From the sequence record KC710998: a DNA stretch of 51,821 nucleotides; one strand, 5' to 3'. A program made the translations under genes and the position numbers. Shown here in pieces: positions 1 to 13,655 of this stretch. The notes below the pieces were generated by a model. That model saw only the letters and a program-made list of their open reading frames with translations, searched no databases and had not been told where the DNA came from. Position 1 is the first letter of the stretch, and the number at the start of each line of letters is the position of its first letter. This DNA is from Shigella phage pSf-1.

Positions 1-1208
1 TGTTCATTCCCGTCTACATAAATACCAGCCCCAGGAGCTAAGGAAATACTTTTCGCTCCTGAAAAAGCACCATTTTCATTAAACTGATAATACTGTGATA
101 ACCCATTATGAAATACTCCTATTGTATGCTTTCCTACGCCTACTTGAGTCTCAAAATAAGACTGAGAAGATCCAATATCTTCACCTTGTGTACTCTTTAG
201 TTTTGAATGGTATATACCTGCGTTTGCAGTAGATGCATTTTCCGTTTCATTTTCAACATTAAGACTAAAGAACTTTGGCGCATGTTTCTCGCCAAGTCCT
301 ATATTGTTTCTGATGCCATTTGCGTCAATAGCTCCAGTACCACCAGAAGAAATAGCTAAAGGCACAGTTTCAAATGCACCAGATCCAGAAATATCTCTCT
401 GAAAAACAAGAAGACCATCATTTCTGATAACAAGCCTATATTCTCTATTTCTAGAGTACAAGATAGTATGTACGTAATCCTGAAAAAATGAATCAATACT
501 AAGCGTCTGGCGAGCAGATTCAATGTCAGAAAGATCTTTAAGATTCTGATCCTTATGCAATAGATTTTCAGGATTTACCTGTTGCGCCCACTGGCGAGCT
601 TCATCACGCGCCAATACAGCCTGATCGCGAGCGCCAAAAGCCTCTTGTTTAATGGCTTCCGTTTCGATTATAGCTGAATCTTTAATCTGTTGCGTTTGCG
701 CCTTGATTGCGTCAGTGTCTGATTTAATCTGGTTTGTTTCAGCAACAGCAGAATCCTTTATCTGTTGAGTGTTGTTTTTCAGTTGTTCAGTAGCAGCGCG
801 ATCATTGGCCGTTTTCTCTGCATCACTTTTAACCTGATTAGCCAGATCTTGCAGCTGTTTTAGGTCAAAGTTTTTGAAAAATTCAATAGCTTCCTCGATC
901 TGAGTTTCTTTGCTTTGATAGTAACGCAGCGTTTCCGCAACATCTTGCGCTAGTCCGTCAACAGTGATTGAGTCATGCAGCAAAATAATGTAGTTGCTTC
1001 GCCCAATTTCAGCGCCGCCAGTTGTGATGGCGCGTATTTGTGTATCGCTGATAACTTCACTGATCACAGCCGCTTGGAATGGTGCATCAATGAAAAAGAT
1101 TGTTGCACCAGGGCGAATGAGCGTTAGTTGCTCTCGCCATTTTGTGTCGTATCCAGTGATATAACCTTGCGCGTCCATTGACGCTTGTCCGGTTCTGTAA
1201 ATCGCCAT
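1..1208 (-). CDS. tail fiber protein, N-terminal part (3' end runs off window start; probably continuous with 50899..51821)
   Basis: ATG at 1208..1206 preceded by GGGAGA RBS; minus-strand frame open to position 1 (MAIYRTGQASMDAQGYITGYDTKWREQLTLIRPGATIFFIDAP...); absent from ORF track because truncated by window edge. Confidence 0.55.
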   Translation of the reverse strand, partial: MAIYRTGQASMDAQGYITGYDTKWREQLTLIRPGATIFFIDAPFQAAVISEVISDTQIRAITTGGAEIGRSNYIILLHDSITVDGLAQDVAETLRYYQSKETQIEEAIEFFKNFDLKQLQDLANQVKSDAEKTANDRAATEQLKNNTQQIKDSAVAETNQIKSDTDAIKAQTQQIKDSAIIETEAIKQEAFGARDQAVLARDEARQWAQQVNPENLLHKDQNLKDLSDIESARQTLSIDSFFQDYVHTILYSRNREYRLVIRNDGLLVFQRDISGSGAFETVPLAISSGGTGAIDANGIRNNIGLGEKHAPKFFSLNVENETENASTANAGIYHSKLKSTQGEDIGSSQSYFETQVGVGKHTIGVFHNGLSQYYQFNENGAFSGAKSISLAPGAGIYVDGNE

Positions 1209-1307: not shown

Positions 1308-2240
1308 TTAGAGAAGAGATTCAGGTTTGTAAACCTTTCTCTCTATCCCTTGCCTGTAATTATCATGAATCGGCATCATAATTTCAAGTCCTCTTTCCTC
1401 GGCAGCAATGATCGCGTCACGGTCTGTACTCTTACAGACAACTCGCATTCTTCTGTTGCCTTTATACCTGTAAGCTACAATCTCAATATTCGTTGCATCA
1501 AAGCAGGCCCAAACCTCTTGACCAGTTGCAAGGTGAATATGTTGCGCATCAATCCAGTCAACGCAAAGATAGATAGTCTTATCGGTGCTTCCTGTTCTAA
1601 CAACCGACCCCCGCGTGTAGTCCTTTGCGAGAAAAGACTGTTTACCTTCTTCATCAATGAAAAGCACATTGCACATTTCATCATCAACATCATCTGAATG
1701 CACAAGGTAACATGGTAACGCGTGAATGTATCGACCATCTTTTACGCCGCAATCATAATGACCATCTTCAGGCGGGTATATTCCTTCATATGTGCTTAAC
1801 GGCGTGCGATCAAATTTTAGTGTTTTTGACATAACGCGCTCGCAGCATTCATGGCTTGCCTGTTTCCCAAACGAATAACCAGAATCACGAGATACTCGCT
1901 TATTTGCCTTGATTCTATAGTCCTGCGGAACTTTTCCAAGAAAACGGCCCAAAATATTGATCACTTCGCTGTAAGGTTCTCCGGTTAGCTTCATGATCCA
2001 ACCAATTCCGGTATCATTACCGCACACGTTGCAGATCGCACCGCCATCGCCTTTTTTATCGCCAAGTTTATCCGTCCATCTGAAGCGATCCTTTCCGCCG
2101 CAGTGGGGGCAAGATTGATGCTTGCCGTTAAAAACTTCATTTGGAAGACCGCAAATACTTTGTAGCGCCTCACGCCACAATCCTTGCATATATGGGAGAA
2201 CATCTTCCTTTTGATAAACCATAAAGTTTTCGTTATTCAT
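1308..2240 (-). CDS. DNA primase (P4-type zinc-binding / toprim-like)
   Basis: CPHCGG...CNVCGND zinc-ribbon motif; start moved to internal ATG (MNNENFMVYQ) with GAGGTG RBS; track ORF 1308..2342. Confidence 0.6.
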   Translation of the reverse strand: MNNENFMVYQKEDVLPYMQGLWREALQSICGLPNEVFNGKHQSCPHCGGKDRFRWTDKLGDKKGDGGAICNVCGNDTGIGWIMKLTGEPYSEVINILGRFLGKVPQDYRIKANKRVSRDSGYSFGKQASHECCERVMSKTLKFDRTPLSTYEGIYPPEDGHYDCGVKDGRYIHALPCYLVHSDDVDDEMCNVLFIDEEGKQSFLAKDYTRGSVVRTGSTDKTIYLCVDWIDAQHIHLATGQEVWACFDATNIEIVAYRYKGNRRMRVVCKSTDRDAIIAAEERGLEIMMPIHDNYRQGIERKVYKPESLL

Positions 2241-2858: not shown

Positions 2859-4541
2859 ATGATTCCAAACATTGAAAAGCAAATATCAGCACTTGGTGAA
2901 GCGGTAATTAAATCCATTCAGGAGCGATTCACTGTTGGCGATATTGTGCCTTACCCTTACCAGTGCGTTGCATACGCTGAGATCGCAAAGCGTATGAAAA
3001 ATTATGAGCATCCATTCTTTGTTAAAGCGTCCGTATCGGCTGGCAAAACATTGGTGTTTGCAATGGTTGCTCACCAGTGCCGGAAAATGGGCTTGAAAAT
3101 GATGGTCCTTGCTCGCCAGGCTGAGATTGTGGGTCAGGATTCTGAAGAGATAACAAATCTTGGTGTGCCGAACTCCATCTATTGTGCAGGACTGAAGACA
3201 AAAAGCGCATACTTTCCGATCGTTGTTGGTTCTGAGGGAACTGTAGTTAATGGACTGTTTAAAGCGCTTGGCGACTATGTTCCGCACGTTATCGGGATTG
3301 ACGAGTGTCACCAGGTGGATTGGGAAGACCTTGCCGACGCAATAGACAAAGACGAATCATTTTTGCAAATGACGACGAAGAAAGGCGAAAAAGTACCAAA
3401 TCCAGATTATGACATAACAAAGGGAAGCAGGAACAGAAATACAGAGTTCCTGATTGGTGAAGATGGCTTGCCAATGGAGGGAACAGGCCGCACACAATAC
3501 ACTGTCATTATCATGGAAATGATGCGACGTTGCAGGAAAGCATATGGCCATGAACTGCGCATATTTGGCATGACTGGATCGGAGTTTCGCGGCGTAGTCC
3601 CGATCCTGGTAGAAGACAAAAAACAAAAAGGATTCTGGCGTGAACAGGTTACTAATATTGACACCAACTACCTGATCAAATTCGGTTCTGTTGTGCCAAC
3701 AAATTTTGGCGACGTTGGCGATCTAGGGTATGACCTTTCAGAGTTTGAGGCATCCAGCGAGGATGGCGTTGCAGACTTTGACGCTAAAACGCTTCGTAGG
3801 ATGGAACAAAAAATTCATGAAGAAGCGACCATGACAAAGCGCATCATGGCAAAAGTTCACGAGATCTGTAAAAACCGCAACGGCGTACTTGTGACATGTG
3901 CAGGAGAAAGGCATTGCAAAGAGGCAGCGGCAGCGTTGCCACCTGGAACTACTTACAGGATCATTACTGGTAAGACTGGCGACAATCAGCGCAAGGAGTG
4001 GTTGAGGGAAGCATACGAAGGGAAGGTAAAATACATCTTCCAGGTTCAGGCGCTAACAACTGGCGTTAACGTTCCGTTTTGGGATACGTCGGTTATATTG
4101 CGTAAGATTGGATCTCTTACGTTGCTGATTCAGCTTTTAGGGCGCGGAATGCGACTACTTAAGAAGTGGCATAAGGAGCAAGGATTCCAGAAAGATGATC
4201 ATCTCGTCATGGATTTTTCAGGAACGATGGACGAGTTAGGGGAACTTTATTTTGATCCGATACTGGAACAGGCGCAACATCAGAAGCGATTCAGGAACGG
4301 TAAAGATCCGAAGCCTTGTCCTGTTTGCGGAACTCTTAATAGCTATTATGCTCGTCGTTGTATGCACGTAGACGAAAACGGCAACAGATGCGAGTGGTTC
4401 TTTAAATTCAGGACATGCGATGATCAGATTGACCCGCGCACTAAAAAGATTATTCATCGCGGTTGTGGAACGAAAAATGATATTGCGGCCAGGGTGTGCA
4501 GACATTGCGACATGTCATTGATTGACCTAACGAGAAGTTGA
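2859..4541 (+). CDS. SF2 (DEAD/DEAH-type) DNA helicase with C-terminal zinc ribbons
   Basis: Walker A VSAGKT, GIDECHQ (DExH box), C-terminal CPVCG...CRHC; start chosen at ATG 2859 downstream of promoter cassette (track ORF starts 2793). Confidence 0.7.
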   Translation: MIPNIEKQISALGEAVIKSIQERFTVGDIVPYPYQCVAYAEIAKRMKNYEHPFFVKASVSAGKTLVFAMVAHQCRKMGLKMMVLARQAEIVGQDSEEITNLGVPNSIYCAGLKTKSAYFPIVVGSEGTVVNGLFKALGDYVPHVIGIDECHQVDWEDLADAIDKDESFLQMTTKKGEKVPNPDYDITKGSRNRNTEFLIGEDGLPMEGTGRTQYTVIIMEMMRRCRKAYGHELRIFGMTGSEFRGVVPILVEDKKQKGFWREQVTNIDTNYLIKFGSVVPTNFGDVGDLGYDLSEFEASSEDGVADFDAKTLRRMEQKIHEEATMTKRIMAKVHEICKNRNGVLVTCAGERHCKEAAAALPPGTTYRIITGKTGDNQRKEWLREAYEGKVKYIFQVQALTTGVNVPFWDTSVILRKIGSLTLLIQLLGRGMRLLKKWHKEQGFQKDDHLVMDFSGTMDELGELYFDPILEQAQHQKRFRNGKDPKPCPVCGTLNSYYARRCMHVDENGNRCEWFFKFRTCDDQIDPRTKKIIHRGCGTKNDIAARVCRHCDMSLIDLTRS

Positions 4542-4903
4542 GCGGAAAGCACTACACAAAAAACGACTGGTTCAAGGTGCAATCTTTCTCGGTTGACATA
4601 ACGAAAAACCAGAAAGGGATAATATTTAATTATGAGCTTTCCGATGGCATGGACACTTTCAGGGCGAGAGAGATATTTTTCCCTGAATCTGAGAGCCAAA
4701 TTTGCCGCGCAAAATGGCGAAGCGTTGCTCTTAAGCACATACCAGATCGCCGCGTTGCTGGCATGGTGGCGAGCTATCGTAATGCACGAAAAATAATGCA
4801 ATATGTGAATCACATTATGCCGCCATCGCGTGTGACTCACCGCAAGACTAGCAAGGGTGAAGATAATTTGTACAAGAAGGACTTTAATTATGGCAATAAC
4901 TGA
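4538..4903 (+). CDS. hypothetical protein (TTG start overlapping helicase stop)
   Basis: ORF track; no recognisable motif; start uncertain. Confidence 0.3.
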   Translation: MSGKHYTKNDWFKVQSFSVDITKNQKGIIFNYELSDGMDTFRAREIFFPESESQICRAKWRSVALKHIPDRRVAGMVASYRNARKIMQYVNHIMPPSRVTHRKTSKGEDNLYKKDFNYGNN

Positions 4904-5309
4904 TAAAGGCGATTATCTGGAGTTTTACGAAAGAGATCCGACGGATACGCTAAAAGAGGAATCACACCAGATTGGGGCGTTTCAATGGTTAACTTATGCT
5001 CATCCTGAATTTCTTGCCTGGCATACGAAAAATGAGGGAGAAAAGGGTATCGCTACCGCAATGATGGATCAGCAAGCTGGACTCGTTAAGGGCGTAAGTG
5101 ATTTTATCATCCTGATTGGATTAAAAGGCCGTTACCCATTCGCGGCTATTGAGATGAAACGCGTCAATAAGTCTGGCAAGGGCAAGGCTTCACCAGTCAG
5201 CAAGGAGCAAAAAGCCTTCTTGCGCCGTGTGCGTGAGCTTGGCGGATTCGCTGCCGTAACATACGGATATAAGCAATTCATGATCGCGGTAGAATACATG
5301 ATGAAATAG
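4890..5309 (+). CDS. VRR-NUC domain nuclease (PD-(D/E)xK)
   Basis: KGVSDFIIL...IEMKR motif pattern typical of VRR-NUC; ATG 4890 with AAGGA RBS. Confidence 0.6.
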   Translation: MAITDKGDYLEFYERDPTDTLKEESHQIGAFQWLTYAHPEFLAWHTKNEGEKGIATAMMDQQAGLVKGVSDFIILIGLKGRYPFAAIEMKRVNKSGKGKASPVSKEQKAFLRRVRELGGFAAVTYGYKQFMIAVEYMMK

Positions 5310-5349
5310 CACTTTTTGTTAAAACAGGCGCGAAGGATTGCGCCATAAT
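5306..5349 (+). promoter_or_regulatory. conserved promoter cassette (ATAGCACTTTTTGTTAAAAC + hairpin spacer + CATAAT)
   Basis: motif begins at stop codon TAG of upstream gene; spacer GGCGCGAAGGATTGCGCC is an inverted repeat. Confidence 0.55.
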
Positions 5350-5383
5350 AACACCAGTTCAACAAGCAACAGGTAATTAAGAA

Positions 5384-8173: not shown

Positions 8174-8389
8174 ATGAAAGATTTTTTAAACGCCGCAACT
8201 TCCGGTACTGGCGGCGCGTCAATCACTGGCGCGGTAACTGGTCAAACAACTATCGCAATAGCCAGCTTAGTTTTGATGGCTGCATTTGGTATGTGGGGCG
8301 CTTATCTTCGTTGGCGTGATAGCAAGGCGCTACGTGACGCTCTTGAATGCGGTGATATTAAGAAAGCTATTGAGATCAGAGGTAAATAA
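8174..8389 (+). CDS. holin (small, pinholin-like)
   Basis: 71 aa, hydrophobic core, charged C-terminus, directly upstream of and overlapping endolysin start. Confidence 0.55.
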
Positions 8390-8877
8390 TGAGTATAAAA
8401 CAAAGAGTGACCGCTGCGGCTTTTGGCGTTGCTCTTGCCCTTACTTCTCCGCTACTGGAGGAAATAGAAGGAGTAAAATATAAGCCGTACAAAGATATTG
8501 CTGGGATATGGACGGTTTGCGCCGGAATAACTGGACCTGACGTAATACAAGGCAAAACGTACACACAAAGAGAGTGTGATGCACTACTGGCAAAGCATAT
8601 CAAGATCGCAAAGGATGAAGTTGATAAGAGTGTAAAGGTTGACATTCCTGATACAATGCGCGCAGCAATGTATTCATTCACATACAATGCTGGAACTGGA
8701 GCTTTTAGAAATTCAACCATGCTTAAGCTGATTAATAGAGGTCGTTACATGGAAGCGTGTAATCAGTTATGGCGATGGACCAAGTACACCAATCCAAAAA
8801 CTGGAAAGAAAGAAACGTCTAAAGGACTGCGCAACCGCCGCGCGGTGGAATTTAAATATTGCATTAAGGATCTGTAA
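8389..8877 (+). CDS. SAR endolysin (T4-lysozyme-like muramidase)
   Basis: N-terminal weakly hydrophobic Ala/Gly-rich signal-anchor-release segment; catalytic E-x8-D-x5-T triad ([16 protein letters not shown]). Confidence 0.7.
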
Positions 8878-8879
8878 TT

Positions 8880-9296
8880 ATGCGAAAGTTATCACTAATC
8901 GCGATCGCTGTTATTTTGTCTGGATGTTCAAGCGTTACGCCACTGACCGGATTAATCGGTAGTAAGCCGGAAATCACCGCGCAGGCAGGAGCGGAGAACG
9001 TAAAGCAGACCGTAGGCCTGACAGCAAAACAGGACGCAAGCAACAAGCAGGATACAACCATTAAAGATTCGAAAGTTGACACGGTTGATACTTCCAGCAA
9101 AAAGGAGATCAAAACGTCAACCATTCAGGCAAACACCATCAAGGCTGATAAAATCCAGGTTGTGCAGGGTGAGCAAAGGAAGTGGTACGATCCTATAATC
9201 TATTGCGCTGCAATTTTCAGTGGTCTTTTGACTATGCTTTACTTTTCCTACCGCAAAGACAACAAAAAGGAGCTTAACGCCTCCTTTGTTTTATAG
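8880..9296 (+). CDS. unimolecular spanin (lipoprotein with C-terminal TMD)
   Basis: N-terminal lipobox LSGC and C-terminal transmembrane helix; position after endolysin. Confidence 0.6.
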   Translation: MRKLSLIAIAVILSGCSSVTPLTGLIGSKPEITAQAGAENVKQTVGLTAKQDASNKQDTTIKDSKVDTVDTSSKKEIKTSTIQANTIKADKIQVVQGEQRKWYDPIIYCAAIFSGLLTMLYFSYRKDNKKELNASFVL

Positions 9297-9705: not shown

Positions 9706-10113
9706 TCATGTGAGATTGAACTTACGGCGCAGAACTTCAATATTTTGTCTATTAGCATTTGACGTAAACAATTCTTCATCGCTCATTTCTCCGATCCTTA
9801 AAACATCCCTTACCCATTCGTTTTGCATACCTTCCAGACTGTAAAGTTCAAACGAGAAAGGTCGATTTGCAGACCCTTTCTTACACCAGAACTTTCCACC
9901 AACTCCATCAAGATAACCAGCGGTCATCATTCTTGCGCAAAACTCTTTTGAAACGGCGGTTGCAAACATTCTCGGCGTAAATCCTGCGGCCCTTGCGAGC
10001 CGCTCACATTCTCTATGCTGAAATATAAATTTTGCGATATGTTGACGTGTAAACCATTCGAATGACTCACACCAGCGATACAGATCCAAGATAAACAAAA
10101 TGTTACCTCCCAT
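9706..10113 (-). CDS. hypothetical protein
   Basis: ORF track; downstream of HNH gene in same operon. Confidence 0.35.
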   Translation of the reverse strand: MGGNILFILDLYRWCESFEWFTRQHIAKFIFQHRECERLARAAGFTPRMFATAVSKEFCARMMTAGYLDGVGGKFWCKKGSANRPFSFELYSLEGMQNEWVRDVLRIGEMSDEELFTSNANRQNIEVLRRKFNLT

Positions 10114-10615
10114 GATTGCAGTGATATTTTAGTTCGTTTTCTTTTGATCTTCTTGCGCAAGCCGCATCAAATATAGTTTTAAAATATCCAATACAAAATG
10201 TTTTTCCTAAAACTCCTATTTGTGCATAATACAGTCCATCTTTAGTTATTGTAACCCCAGTTAATCCAGTTTTGTTTCTTTTGTTTTTTGATAAGTTTTT
10301 TTGATTATCTTTCTTTCTAACAAGTCTTAGATTTTCTATCCTGTTGTCGTCGCGAATGTGGTTAATGTGATCAATCTCATATCCTTCTAGTATAGCGCCG
10401 TTATGCATTTCCCATATTATCCGATGCGCCAAAAATCTCCTTTTATTTATGTTTAATAATATATAACCAGATTCTAAATCCTTACATCCTGCAATCTTAC
10501 CAGAATATTGAGTGTTACATTTGCTCATTATTCTTTCGCATGAGAAGTGGCTTAATGGCCTGGTGCGCCATATAAGCGCACCATTTGAATATGTAAAATA
10601 ATCATGCCAATTCAT
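10103..10615 (-). CDS. HNH homing endonuclease with AP2-like DNA-binding domain
   Basis: HNH motif EIDHINHIRDDNRIENLRLV...N; AP2-like segment GVTITKDGLYYAQIGVLGKTFCIGYF; GGGGTAA RBS. Confidence 0.65.
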   Translation of the reverse strand: MNWHDYFTYSNGALIWRTRPLSHFSCERIMSKCNTQYSGKIAGCKDLESGYILLNINKRRFLAHRIIWEMHNGAILEGYEIDHINHIRDDNRIENLRLVRKKDNQKNLSKNKRNKTGLTGVTITKDGLYYAQIGVLGKTFCIGYFKTIFDAACARRSKENELKYHCNHGR

Positions 10616-10619
10616 AAAA

Positions 10620-12203
10620 TTACCCCAGCAATGTTGGATTTACGAAAACAACGCCATTAATCACGCAAATATAGTTTCTTTCCTCAAGCATCGGAAGCAG
10701 TTGCGTTTCCATTCGCTTCATTACTCCAGCCTGACCAACAAACGGCTTAACTTTTCGTGCTGCCTCATATATAGCGCGAACATTCAATATCCCCTTATTA
10801 GCCTTGCCGTGTCGAGTAATGATCTCGATTAGTTTACCCATTTCAGCATCATCACCAGCGTAGCCAGAAGCGTTGGCGGCGCTAATGTATGTTTTGCTCA
10901 ACTCGCTAAACATCAGTAGTGCTTCCTGAACGGTTTCAACCTCAATCTCTTTCGACTTTTGAGGGTATCCGCCAGGGTTAAACCAATTGCGGATAGTGTG
11001 CAAAACCGAAGCAATCCTGATCACCTGCTTATCCATTTTTCCAAGCGCACCGCGCAGCATTGTATGCGAATACTTTCCGCCATCGGCAAGGTGCGGTTCC
11101 ATTTCCTGACGAGCCATGTTAAGAACTCGCATTGCTGATTTGCTGATCTTAAGCTGGATGTTTGATTCACTCATGATGTTATGGATCAGCTTAAAATATT
11201 GACTTTTCAGTTCTCCATCAACAGGCTCATAAGTCGAATCACCGTTATCATCAACAAACTTTCGACGACCTAAAAATGATTCCTCACGCACAAGCAAATA
11301 ACGCTCACTTACACCGATACCGCGCGATCCTGCATCCATGATGGCATTGATTGTTTCATCCTGGGCAATTACCGCCATACAGCCAAGAGCTTTAAAACTC
11401 ATATTGTTGTCAGCGTTTGCACGAGCTATAGAAACATGACCGTGATCCCATGCTTTTAATACAAGTTCGCTGTTGGTTTTACGTTCACTATTGGCATATG
11501 TCAGACCTAAAAGGCTGTTAATACTCGTTGCCTCGTCTGAAATTACAGCAAAGTTACCCTGGCGATTATTGATTCTTGCAAGTCCTTCCGGCGTGGTGTC
11601 GGACACAGGGAAAACTATGTCACACATCTTTTCCAGTTTTTCTTCCAGATCTTCTTTCTCCTGGTACAGAGATTCCATATCAGCGCCGGAGCGCTCGCTT
11701 TTCATCTCTTTTGCAAGACCTGCCAACTTTGCCTGAATCTTTTTTCTTTCCTTCTTTCGCTGATCGTTAATTCTTTCCACTTCTGCAACCATTGGAGCAA
11801 GTGCCAAGCTGTTAACGGCAGATTTACCAGTTGATGGAGGCTGGCTTGTAACAACGTACAGAGCGGTTGGTTGATCCGTTCCGTGATACTCAACAGTGAA
11901 GCGTCCAAGCATTGCAGCAGACACGCATCCGATAAAATGCATATATGCCGATGATTCAGGGAACTGAACTGATCGAGCAATGTTGCGCGCCAACTTGCCA
12001 ACAATATCAACATCATTGCCAAGAGAAATTACAGGGTAGCGATCGTTTCCGTTATTAACATCATTAACCTCACCCCAAAAGCTGGACGATTGACGGTATC
12101 CGTTTGCCTGAATGGACACGCGCACCGGAGACAATCCTTGTGCATCAGCTAATTCGATAATTTGTTTTGGTGTTAGTTTGTTGGTTTCAAACGAAAAATT
12201 CAT
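10620..12203 (-). CDS. DUF3987-like P-loop ATPase (putative replicative primase-helicase-associated protein)
   Basis: Walker A-like PPSTGKS, Walker B-like AVISDEAT; start at MNFSFETNK (ATG 12203, AAAGGAG RBS) downstream of promoter cassette. Confidence 0.5.
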   Translation of the reverse strand: MNFSFETNKLTPKQIIELADAQGLSPVRVSIQANGYRQSSSFWGEVNDVNNGNDRYPVISLGNDVDIVGKLARNIARSVQFPESSAYMHFIGCVSAAMLGRFTVEYHGTDQPTALYVVTSQPPSTGKSAVNSLALAPMVAEVERINDQRKKERKKIQAKLAGLAKEMKSERSGADMESLYQEKEDLEEKLEKMCDIVFPVSDTTPEGLARINNRQGNFAVISDEATSINSLLGLTYANSERKTNSELVLKAWDHGHVSIARANADNNMSFKALGCMAVIAQDETINAIMDAGSRGIGVSERYLLVREESFLGRRKFVDDNGDSTYEPVDGELKSQYFKLIHNIMSESNIQLKISKSAMRVLNMARQEMEPHLADGGKYSHTMLRGALGKMDKQVIRIASVLHTIRNWFNPGGYPQKSKEIEVETVQEALLMFSELSKTYISAANASGYAGDDAEMGKLIEIITRHGKANKGILNVRAIYEAARKVKPFVGQAGVMKRMETQLLPMLEERNYICVINGVVFVNPTLLG

Positions 12204-12230
12204 TGGTGATAACTCCTTTTTGATGCGGCA

Positions 12231-12274
12231 ATAATACCGCACCAATGCTACCCGCATTTAACAAAAAATGCTAT
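12231..12274 (-). promoter_or_regulatory. conserved promoter cassette (minus strand, variant ATAGCATTTTTTGTTAAATG)
   Basis: motif + 19 nt spacer + TATTAT upstream of DUF3987 gene. Confidence 0.5.
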
Positions 12275-12904: not shown

Positions 12905-12949
12905 GATTATGCCAGGTTTTGCACCTGGCGTTTTAACAAAAAGTGCTAT
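12905..12949 (-). promoter_or_regulatory. conserved promoter cassette (minus strand)
   Basis: 44-nt core identical to the plus-strand cassette at 17701..17744 (includes hairpin GCCAGGTGCAAAACCTGGC). Confidence 0.55.
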
Positions 12950-13655
12950 TTTGCGTTTGCTTCAAAGACGGCGCGAGCAAAACCGCGCGGTGTGAGGGAG
13001 CGGATCATCTTTGTGCGAGATGATTTTCCGCCAGTTTTGGCCCAACCAGGATTATCCTTGTCATCCTCTTTAGGAAGGATTGTTGCGCGCGGAGGAATAA
13101 CAAATCCGTTTCCAGTCCAAAGGCATGTTTTCTTAAAGTACCGATCCCGCGCCGGAATAATATCAGGGAAGTCGGGATGCTTATCATCTTCCGGCAGATA
13201 GCAGCATAATCGCACGGATGGAACGTATAATCAGGCTTACGCCATAACGTTGACAGCTTGCCTACAGGATTTTCGATCATGTAAGGAACGCCGAAATAAT
13301 CAGCGATATGCGCCGCGATTCTGCAAGTGTCGGCGGCCTCATCCTGGAACGCTGGATTCTCAAGGCGTTTTTTGGTCCAATGGCGAGATCCGCTATTTGC
13401 AAGGTCAGTGCACGGCGGAAATGCCATAATGAAATCAGGCTTGCCCCAATTTTCAAGTTTTGCGGTATATTTGAATAGCTCATCAATCCACACATTAACG
13501 TAAAAAATATTATCATGGATTATGCGCACTGATTGGTAGTCGCCATGATCTGCATCATCGTAATTAAAGCAAATGCATTTATATCCAGCATCAGCCCAAT
13601 CTTTAACGGCTTTACCAGATCCATCAAACAAAGAGAATATTAAACCTTTATACAT
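12946..13655 (-). CDS. C5-cytosine DNA methyltransferase-like protein, apparently frameshifted
   Basis: motif I LFDGSG, motif IV FPPCTDLANSG (PC dipeptide), motif VI ENPVG; coding continues in another frame (track ORFs 13005..13655 and 12946..13215). Confidence 0.45.

Follow-up and report, generated by a model that had tools for sequence, protein, structure and literature searches.

A predicted free-standing HNH-AP2 homing endonuclease gene beside the DUF3987 helicase gene of Shigella phage pSf-1

The DNA under study, hereafter termed the window, is the whole analyzed stretch of 51,821 nucleotides (nt) from Shigella phage pSf-1 (sequence record KC710998), and directly 3' of the gene for a putative replicative helicase of the DUF3987 type it carries a small open reading frame (ORF) of 170 amino acids (aa) with the signature of an HNH nuclease. 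The locus raises the question of whether this small gene is a mobile homing endonuclease gene that entered the genome beside a conserved gene, as was put forward in an original prediction made from the sequence alone, or a long-standing resident of the helicase operon. From the comparative analysis presented here, it is highly probable that the ORF represents a free-standing HNH(HNN)-AP2 homing endonuclease gene inserted between the helicase stop codon and codon 2 of the next gene. The interpretation as a homing gene follows from the domain architecture, the intact catalytic residues, the presence/absence polymorphism, the fidelity to one site, the foreign base composition and the mosaic flanks. 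The source genome is Hanrivervirus-like (Drexlerviridae, Tempevirinae) and belongs to a T1-like coliphage; the region is 94–97% identical to Hanrivervirus phages, and both ORFs of interest, encoding the 170-aa HNH protein and the 527-aa helicase, lie on the minus strand.

The endonuclease gene and its insertion site

The 170-aa protein matches the Pfam family HNH_3 (PF13392) with 68.9 bits against a cut-off of 24.8 (E=2.8e-19) and the PHROGs family phrog_99, annotated as 'HNH endonuclease' (E=3e-56), and the HNH motif expected in ORF 10103..10615 was located as EIDHINHIRDDNRIENLRLV at residues 80–99. Residues D82, H83, N95, N104 and N107 are invariant across 42 aligned homologues. The profile of this alignment matches the solved structure of I-HmuI (1u3e) with E=6.7e-7 via its N-terminal 99 positions, in which the catalytic Asp-His and Asn residues of I-HmuI, with roles as described in the I-HmuI literature, correspond to D82-H83, N95 and N104. 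AlphaFold2, given the alignment, returned a confident model (mean predicted local distance difference test score, pLDDT, of 89.7), and the beta-beta-alpha-metal fold is present together with the catalytic His as general base and the Asp/Asn residues as metal ligands.

The C-terminal domain was modelled as a three-stranded antiparallel sheet followed by a C-terminal helix, which is the fold expected of AP2. A match to Pfam AP2 (PF00847) is found in 26 of the 42 aligned homologues (best, 1.3e-8), and positions ~86–151 of the profile match the AP2/ERF structures of WRI1 (1.3e-3) and TEM1 (4e-3). It is on account of the homologues, the profile and the fold that the AP2 assignment is made, and not of a direct Pfam match; the AP2-like segment of the original prediction thus stands by fold model and homologues, while direct recognition by Pfam AP2 does not. 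Judged by its sequence, the 170-aa protein is an I-HmuI-like 'HNN'-type protein with an intact active site, predicted to be a nuclease, fused to an AP2-fold DNA-binding domain. Further copies of the family were sought in the whole window and none was found, leaving this gene as the single member there.

The insertion itself becomes apparent on comparison with related phages. Almost all Hanrivervirus matches are without ~513 nt of the window query, and BLAST against phage phiE31-2 placed the breakpoints at window positions 10101 and 10618. The empty allele reads ...CTGGGGTAA TT ATG TTT CTA CTT GAT..., in which 2 nt separate the helicase stop from the start of a gene of family phrog_2794, and the window reads ...CTGGGGTAA TTTT ATG AAT TGG ...(HNH)... 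AAT CAT GGG AGG TAA CATT TTG TTT ATC TTG GAT...; the empty junction of the KarlJaspers/Bas06 or phiE31-2 type is ...AACATTGCTGGGGTAATTATGTTTCTTCTGGAT.... The net insertion amounts to 519 nt and is placed between the helicase stop and codon 2 of the phrog_2794 gene, the start codon of which is replaced.

With an 801-bp junction probe from phiE31-2, ~60 Hanrivervirus records (a count that includes RefSeq duplicates) were uninterrupted at 93–100% identity, and Fulano1 was the sole interrupted record. A junction probe derived from SU57 likewise found ~70 Braunvirinae records empty, with SU57 alone occupied. Junctions were read directly in 8 empty and 3 occupied Hanrivervirus alleles. No copy of the HNH gene above 67% aa identity was present in 50,697 phage genomes, of which 3,219 records hold a relative of the family at E<=1e-5. 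The comparison with relatives that had been suggested as a check therefore upholds a mobile insertion beside a conserved gene: the ATPase gene exists without the HNH gene, and relatives do not uniformly carry the latter at this position.

Some observations at the same junction concern other records. IME253 (L103, ~452..540) and ZL19 contain an extra ~89 nt between the helicase and downstream genes, with a hydrophobic mini-ORF of 29 codons and no HNH gene. About 20 GenBank records named 'Campylobacter phage' (e.g. MG065643.1) are Hanriverviruses, 93–95% identical to coliphages at the junction locus; both entries opened were marked UNVERIFIED with C. jejuni as the listed host, which suggests, on sequence identity, mislabelled hosts or contamination.

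Mobility, expression and competing explanations

The base composition of the HNH gene, with a guanine plus cytosine (GC) content of 33.1%, departs from that of the helicase gene (44.4%) and the window (44.0%). Its closest copy (P0001, 98% aa identity) occupies the same site on a 50.5-kb metagenomic contig, L004, and differs from the window gene at 16 of 513 nt, while the flanks of the window are 94.6% and 94.8% identical to those of L004 and come closest to phages with an empty site (phiE31-2 on the left, 97.3%; KarlJaspers on the right, 98.9%). Among the codon differences between the two HNH copies, 10 are synonymous and 4 non-synonymous, a ratio which points to purifying selection on the gene.

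The site fidelity of the clade is evident in that homologues of at least 66% aa identity (98%, 68%, 67% and 66%) are all located directly 3' of a DUF3987 helicase gene, including those of Braunvirinae-type phages, where the loci of P0002, P0003 and SU57_00071 encode helicases ~71% identical to that of the window and downstream genes 45–54% identical. Homologues at or below 50% aa identity are located at other sites, such as P0007 (49%) between terminase subunit genes and the Sf12 homologue (50%) between a different helicase gene and a VRR-NUC gene. A scan of IMG/VR found no relative above 48% identity, and the helicase seen here was a neighbour in 0 of 80 loci. In Fulano1, exactly the same junction holds a different HNH gene, gp51, with 46% aa identity. 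L004 and Fulano1 are collinear at 96.3–96.6% identity with the exception of the HNH ORF body, homology being lost after the first 15 nt of the ORF and regained 24 nt before its stop. At least three states of the site thus occur among genomes that are otherwise nearly identical, namely empty, with the window-type HNH gene and with the Fulano1-type HNH gene. L004 (1845..2345, 4897..5370, 8259..8513) and Fulano1 (L002; gp49, gp53) also harbour additional HNH-AP2 genes of the same family, one in front of the helicase gene and another following the phrog_2794 gene, positions at which the window is empty.

With regard to expression, the helicase TAA lies at 10620–10622 and the HNH ATG at 10613–10615, so the arrangement of endonuclease directly 3' of ATPase at a distance of 4 nt was recovered as originally described. 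Ahead of this ATG, the sole Shine-Dalgarno-like sequence is the GGGG of the final helicase codons. A repeated motif, AATAGCA[CT]TTTTTGTTAAA, occurs in 17 copies in the window at up to 2 mismatches, against 0.65 expected by chance, and is followed after ~17 nt by a CATAAT- or TATATT-like hexamer. The majority of the copies are oriented with local transcription (for example, sites 2786, 5309, 6329, 17704, 18167 and 23241 on the plus strand, and 9571, 12257, 12932, 14981, 15487, 16364, 31394 and 35155 on the minus strand), and they are probably the conserved sigma-70-type promoters of the phage. No terminator-like site was found on the minus strand from the helicase gene to the end of the downstream gene, and a bidirectional hairpin at 9266–9287 closes the converging operons. 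Since no terminator intervenes and the sole promoter-like element lies 5' of the helicase gene, the HNH gene is most likely co-transcribed with it.

The start of the downstream gene is ATG in 8 of 8 Hanrivervirus empty alleles and ATG or GTG in the Braunvirinae empty alleles that were read (GTG in phage FP); in the window, L004, Fulano1, SU57 and loci L007–L009 it is TTG. In these TTG-bearing alleles, GGGAGG or GGGGGA contributed by the last HNH codons (…NHG-R/G stop) stands 5–7 nt ahead of this TTG. Across the Hanrivervirus alleles read directly, the start codon (TTG versus ATG) is the sole marker that tracks occupancy. The ATG at 10113 was considered as an alternative start and rejected for want of a ribosome-binding site and for its absence in Fulano1 and SU57; it is a by-product of the His codon and present only where that codon is CAT, and the TTG is favoured because, with a single exception, every occupied allele type has it with GGGAGG ahead. 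In 70 of 90 loci of the HNH family the next gene follows at a tight spacing, a trait not specific to HNH genes given that phage operons are generally compact. In Braunvirinae-type cassettes the HNH start is set off from the helicase stop by a spacer of ~82 nt that contains a GC-rich hairpin and one promoter-like motif.

A mechanism can be proposed from these features. During co-infection with a relative that lacks the gene, the enzyme would attack the genome of the rival. The AP2 domain and the N-terminal hairpin would bind a sequence in or close to the conserved helicase 3' end and junction, and the HNH site would nick or cut the empty allele. Recombinational repair from the HNH-bearing genome would then copy the cassette into the rival. 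Once in place, the HNH gene may use the ribosome-binding context (GGGG) and the start position from which empty alleles translate the downstream gene, and the displaced gene may in turn be read from a TTG start behind a new ribosome-binding site, the GGGAGG in the last codons of the cassette. As the displaced gene would stay translatable, little polar cost of the insertion is to be expected.

A broader proposition, which we put forward only tentatively and hold to be rather less probable than its negation, is that the helicase/'YdbL' junction of Drexlerviridae serves as a contested landing pad, where at least two HNH-AP2 clades (46% identical) could swap via the conserved termini of their ORFs. 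The conserved 3' end of the cassette (…NHG-R/G stop = GGGAGG, then TTG) might in that case act as a portable translation-restart module that overwrites the host ATG, is neutral in polarity and leaves a start-codon signature of occupancy.

Several points weigh against a homing gene as outlined above. Neither the whole HNH protein nor its C-terminal 67 residues matched Pfam AP2, even at E<=10. Co-conversion tracts and immunity substitutions were sought around the junction in the 8 empty and 3 occupied Hanrivervirus alleles and no clear tract emerged: the differences between TTG TTT ATC TTG and ATG TTT CTT CTG overlap variation that already exists among empty alleles, and two private substitutions at the helicase 3' end of the window are not common to the other occupied alleles. 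The occupied type of L005 and L006 has an extended C-terminus (…NHGVKDVPA) that overlaps the next gene and is without GGGAGG/TTG. Lastly, the divergence between the window and SU57-type HNH proteins (66–68% aa) is similar to that of the adjacent helicases (~71%), so that a long vertical residence with frequent loss also fits.

This last point leads to the explanation that survives best among the alternatives, though we regard it as improbable, in which the HNH gene would be an ancestral resident of the Drexlerviridae helicase operon that was deleted in most lineages, and in the window a decaying or domesticated relic, no longer mobile and not recently acquired. Apart from the matching divergence, it draws on the occurrence of the same HNH clade at the same site in two subfamilies and on the conservation of the TTG right junction and the NHGR terminus across both. 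It would, however, require many precise deletions over ~130 records, each restoring ATG/GTG and a spacer of 2–3 nt, and it leaves the GC contrast of 33% versus 44% unexplained. Moreover, the window flanks resemble those of empty alleles more than those of L004, which carries the same HNH gene, the identical site in Fulano1 holds a second HNH gene of 46% identity, and decay is disfavoured by the 10:4 substitution ratio and the intact catalytic residues.

More doubtful still is a reading in which the phage would retain the nuclease chiefly as a weapon or accessory, for instance for cutting the DNA of competing phages or satellites or aiding replication and recombination together with the helicase, with the spread of the gene being secondary. 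The tight coupling to the helicase gene and the probable co-transcription (4-nt spacer, no terminator) would agree with such a role, as would the purifying selection. For the free-standing homing endonucleases of T4, nuclease-mediated marker exclusion is established. Domains of the HNH-AP2 type have also been co-opted in phage–satellite conflict (PMC10448857). Nevertheless, ~60 close relatives without the gene are viable, arguing that it is not needed for replication; the exclusion of a rival genome is mechanistically the homing event itself, making this largely a difference in emphasis; and no defence or anti-defence family was matched, no test having been aimed at such families.

Although similar-sized HNH proteins assist terminases in HK97-like phages and a 49%-identical homologue sits between terminase subunit genes in other contigs, a terminase-associated HNH protein of the kind required for DNA packaging in some siphoviruses was rejected as very improbable on location and dispensability, since the gene sits in the early replication operon and not beside the terminase, is lacking in close relatives isolated as viable phages and encodes a sequence-specific DNA-binding AP2 domain typical of homing enzymes.

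On balance, as far as sequence can be used to judge, the HNH gene has the features expected of a homing gene except for recognition by Pfam AP2 and a clear co-conversion tract, and we consider it a well-supported but ordinary mobile insertion whose homing activity is a prediction.

Neighbouring genes and other features

The 527-aa P-loop ATPase that was described as DUF3987-like matches Pfam DUF3987 with 149.6 bits against a cut-off of 27 (E=1.7e-43) and phrog_2373 'DNA helicase' (E=1.7e-245), is 99.6% identical in aa sequence to the helicases of phiE31-2 and Fulano1, and contains both of the motifs named earlier (Table 1). Profile searches have accordingly upheld HNH_3 and DUF3987, with AP2 reached via homologues and structure. 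A longer reading of 545 aa from 12257 is possible, but the start at ATG 12203 is preferred on account of AAGGAG 8–9 nt ahead and of the 1584-nt gene annotated in relatives. DUF3987 proteins are classed in SF6, related to MCM, and proposed, as a prediction, to be phage replicative helicases (PMC4889955), and one PriCT-DUF3987 protein is a Walker-dependent 5'-3' helicase (PMC11724360). The designation of this neighbour as a replication gene therefore finds support from literature at the level of the family and no further, and the 527-aa protein is a putative replication ATPase. Searches of the helicase sequence against the PDB gave chance-level matches only, with no solved relative found by sequence, and an NCBIfam search returned no match for the HNH protein, the helicase or the downstream gene product.

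Further along the minus strand, the gene for a Dcm-like C5 cytosine methyltransferase of phrog_757 (12946..13655) has one G missing near ~13203 relative to phiE31-2 and Fulano1. Its frame is shifted after ~residue 150, such that the final part of ORF 13005..13655 is unrelated sequence, and the true C-terminus is to be read on in the frame of ORF 12946..13215. Judged from this comparison, the frameshift may reflect either a pseudogene or an assembly error.

Table 1. Coordinates of the features at the locus (positions in the window unless another record is named)
Feature	Position	Strand	Remarks
Predicted free-standing HNH-AP2 endonuclease gene	10103..10615	-	170 aa + stop; GC 33.1%
HNH_3 catalytic core	10301..10432	-	residues 62-105
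AP2-like DNA-binding domain	10133..10258	-	residues 120-161; three strands + helix
Stretch from helicase stop to downstream codon 2	10096..10619	-	524 nt vs 5 nt (TTATG) in empty alleles
4-nt spacer	10616..10619	-	TTTT on coding strand; between helicase stop and HNH start
GGGAGG Shine-Dalgarno	10106..10111	-	last HNH codons (Gly-Arg), 7 nt before downstream TTG
Downstream phrog_2794 gene ('YdbL' in relatives)	9706..10098	-	130 aa; phrog_2794 E=9e-59; TTG start
DUF3987 / SF6-type putative replicative helicase gene	10620..12203	-	527 aa; conserved gene 5' of insertion
Walker A motif PPSTGKS	11820..11840	-	helicase residues 122-128
Walker B-like motif AVISDEAT	11526..11549	-	helicase residues 219-226
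Promoter-like element 5' of helicase	12230..12271	-	motif AATAGCA[CT]TTTTTGTTAAA then TATTAT
~82-nt spacer	SU57 (L003) 3474..3555; L005 ~1700..1782; L007 ~2918..3000		window: 4 nt only

Comparison with known homing endonucleases

The HNH insertion explains the 519-nt difference between the phage and its relatives, and points to the helicase 3' junction as a recurrent site of homing in T1-like phages. It marks the region as one of gene conversion, which should hence be avoided in phylogenies. With three natural states (empty, type A and type B) in genomes that are otherwise 95–97% identical, the locus offers a convenient system for the study of homing and of allele competition, and it could help to find a new target of a sequence-specific nickase or nuclease. 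The value of these findings lies mostly in annotation and comparative genomics, and the current understanding of phage homing endonucleases is unchanged. Only three points are mildly new: this HNH clade keeps to the helicase 3' junction, two HNH clades exchange at a single site, and the start codon is replaced. In the HNH-AP2 literature cited here, as distinct from the wider literature, which was not surveyed, neither site fidelity to the DUF3987 3' junction nor the ATG-to-TTG replacement is described.

Homing endonucleases of the HNH-AP2 class are well established in phages (PMC2248197, PMC10448857), and also in cyanobacteria and protists. Multiple free-standing copies of the 'HNN-AP2' group occur in T1, Rtp, T5 and the Xanthomonas phages Xp10/OP1/Xop411 (PMC2248197), a clustering near essential genes is described for the 'IPA-HNH' homing endonucleases, those of ICP1 among them (PMC10448857), and curators of coliphage collections already regard regions of this sort as infested by homing endonucleases (bioRxiv 10.1101/2021.03.08.434280). 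The pSf-1 protein resembles the HNN-AP2 and IPA-HNH proteins in the order of an N-terminal HNH and a C-terminal AP2 domain and in its size class, and the gene resembles theirs in its intergenic position beside an essential replication gene and its sporadic occurrence among close relatives. Unlike the known HNN-AP2 group, its AP2 region is too diverged for the Pfam AP2 model. The plant and apicomplexan AP2/ERF domains (TEM1, 7et4; AtERF1, 2gcc; WRI1, 7wq5) share 17–25% identity with the HNH C-terminus, and the tryptophans conserved in the AP2/ERF consensus are substituted (GVTITKDGLYYAQI).

The closest solved relative is I-HmuI of Bacillus phage SPO1 (PDB 1u3e), with an identity of ~23%. I-HmuI is a strand-specific nickase encoded in a group I intron and has helical and helix-turn-helix C-terminal modules, whereas the pSf-1 gene is free-standing and has an AP2 domain instead. 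At the very same junction, the nearest counterparts are Fulano1 gp51 (UGV22652.1, 'putative HNH homing nuclease'), which is 46% identical in aa sequence and of a different clade, and SU57_00071 (QLF85010.1, 'hypothetical protein'), which is 67% identical and preceded by the ~82-nt 5' spacer absent in the window. Both share with the HNH protein of the window the MNWH... N-terminus and the ...YHxNHG C-terminus, and with its gene the TTG restart downstream.

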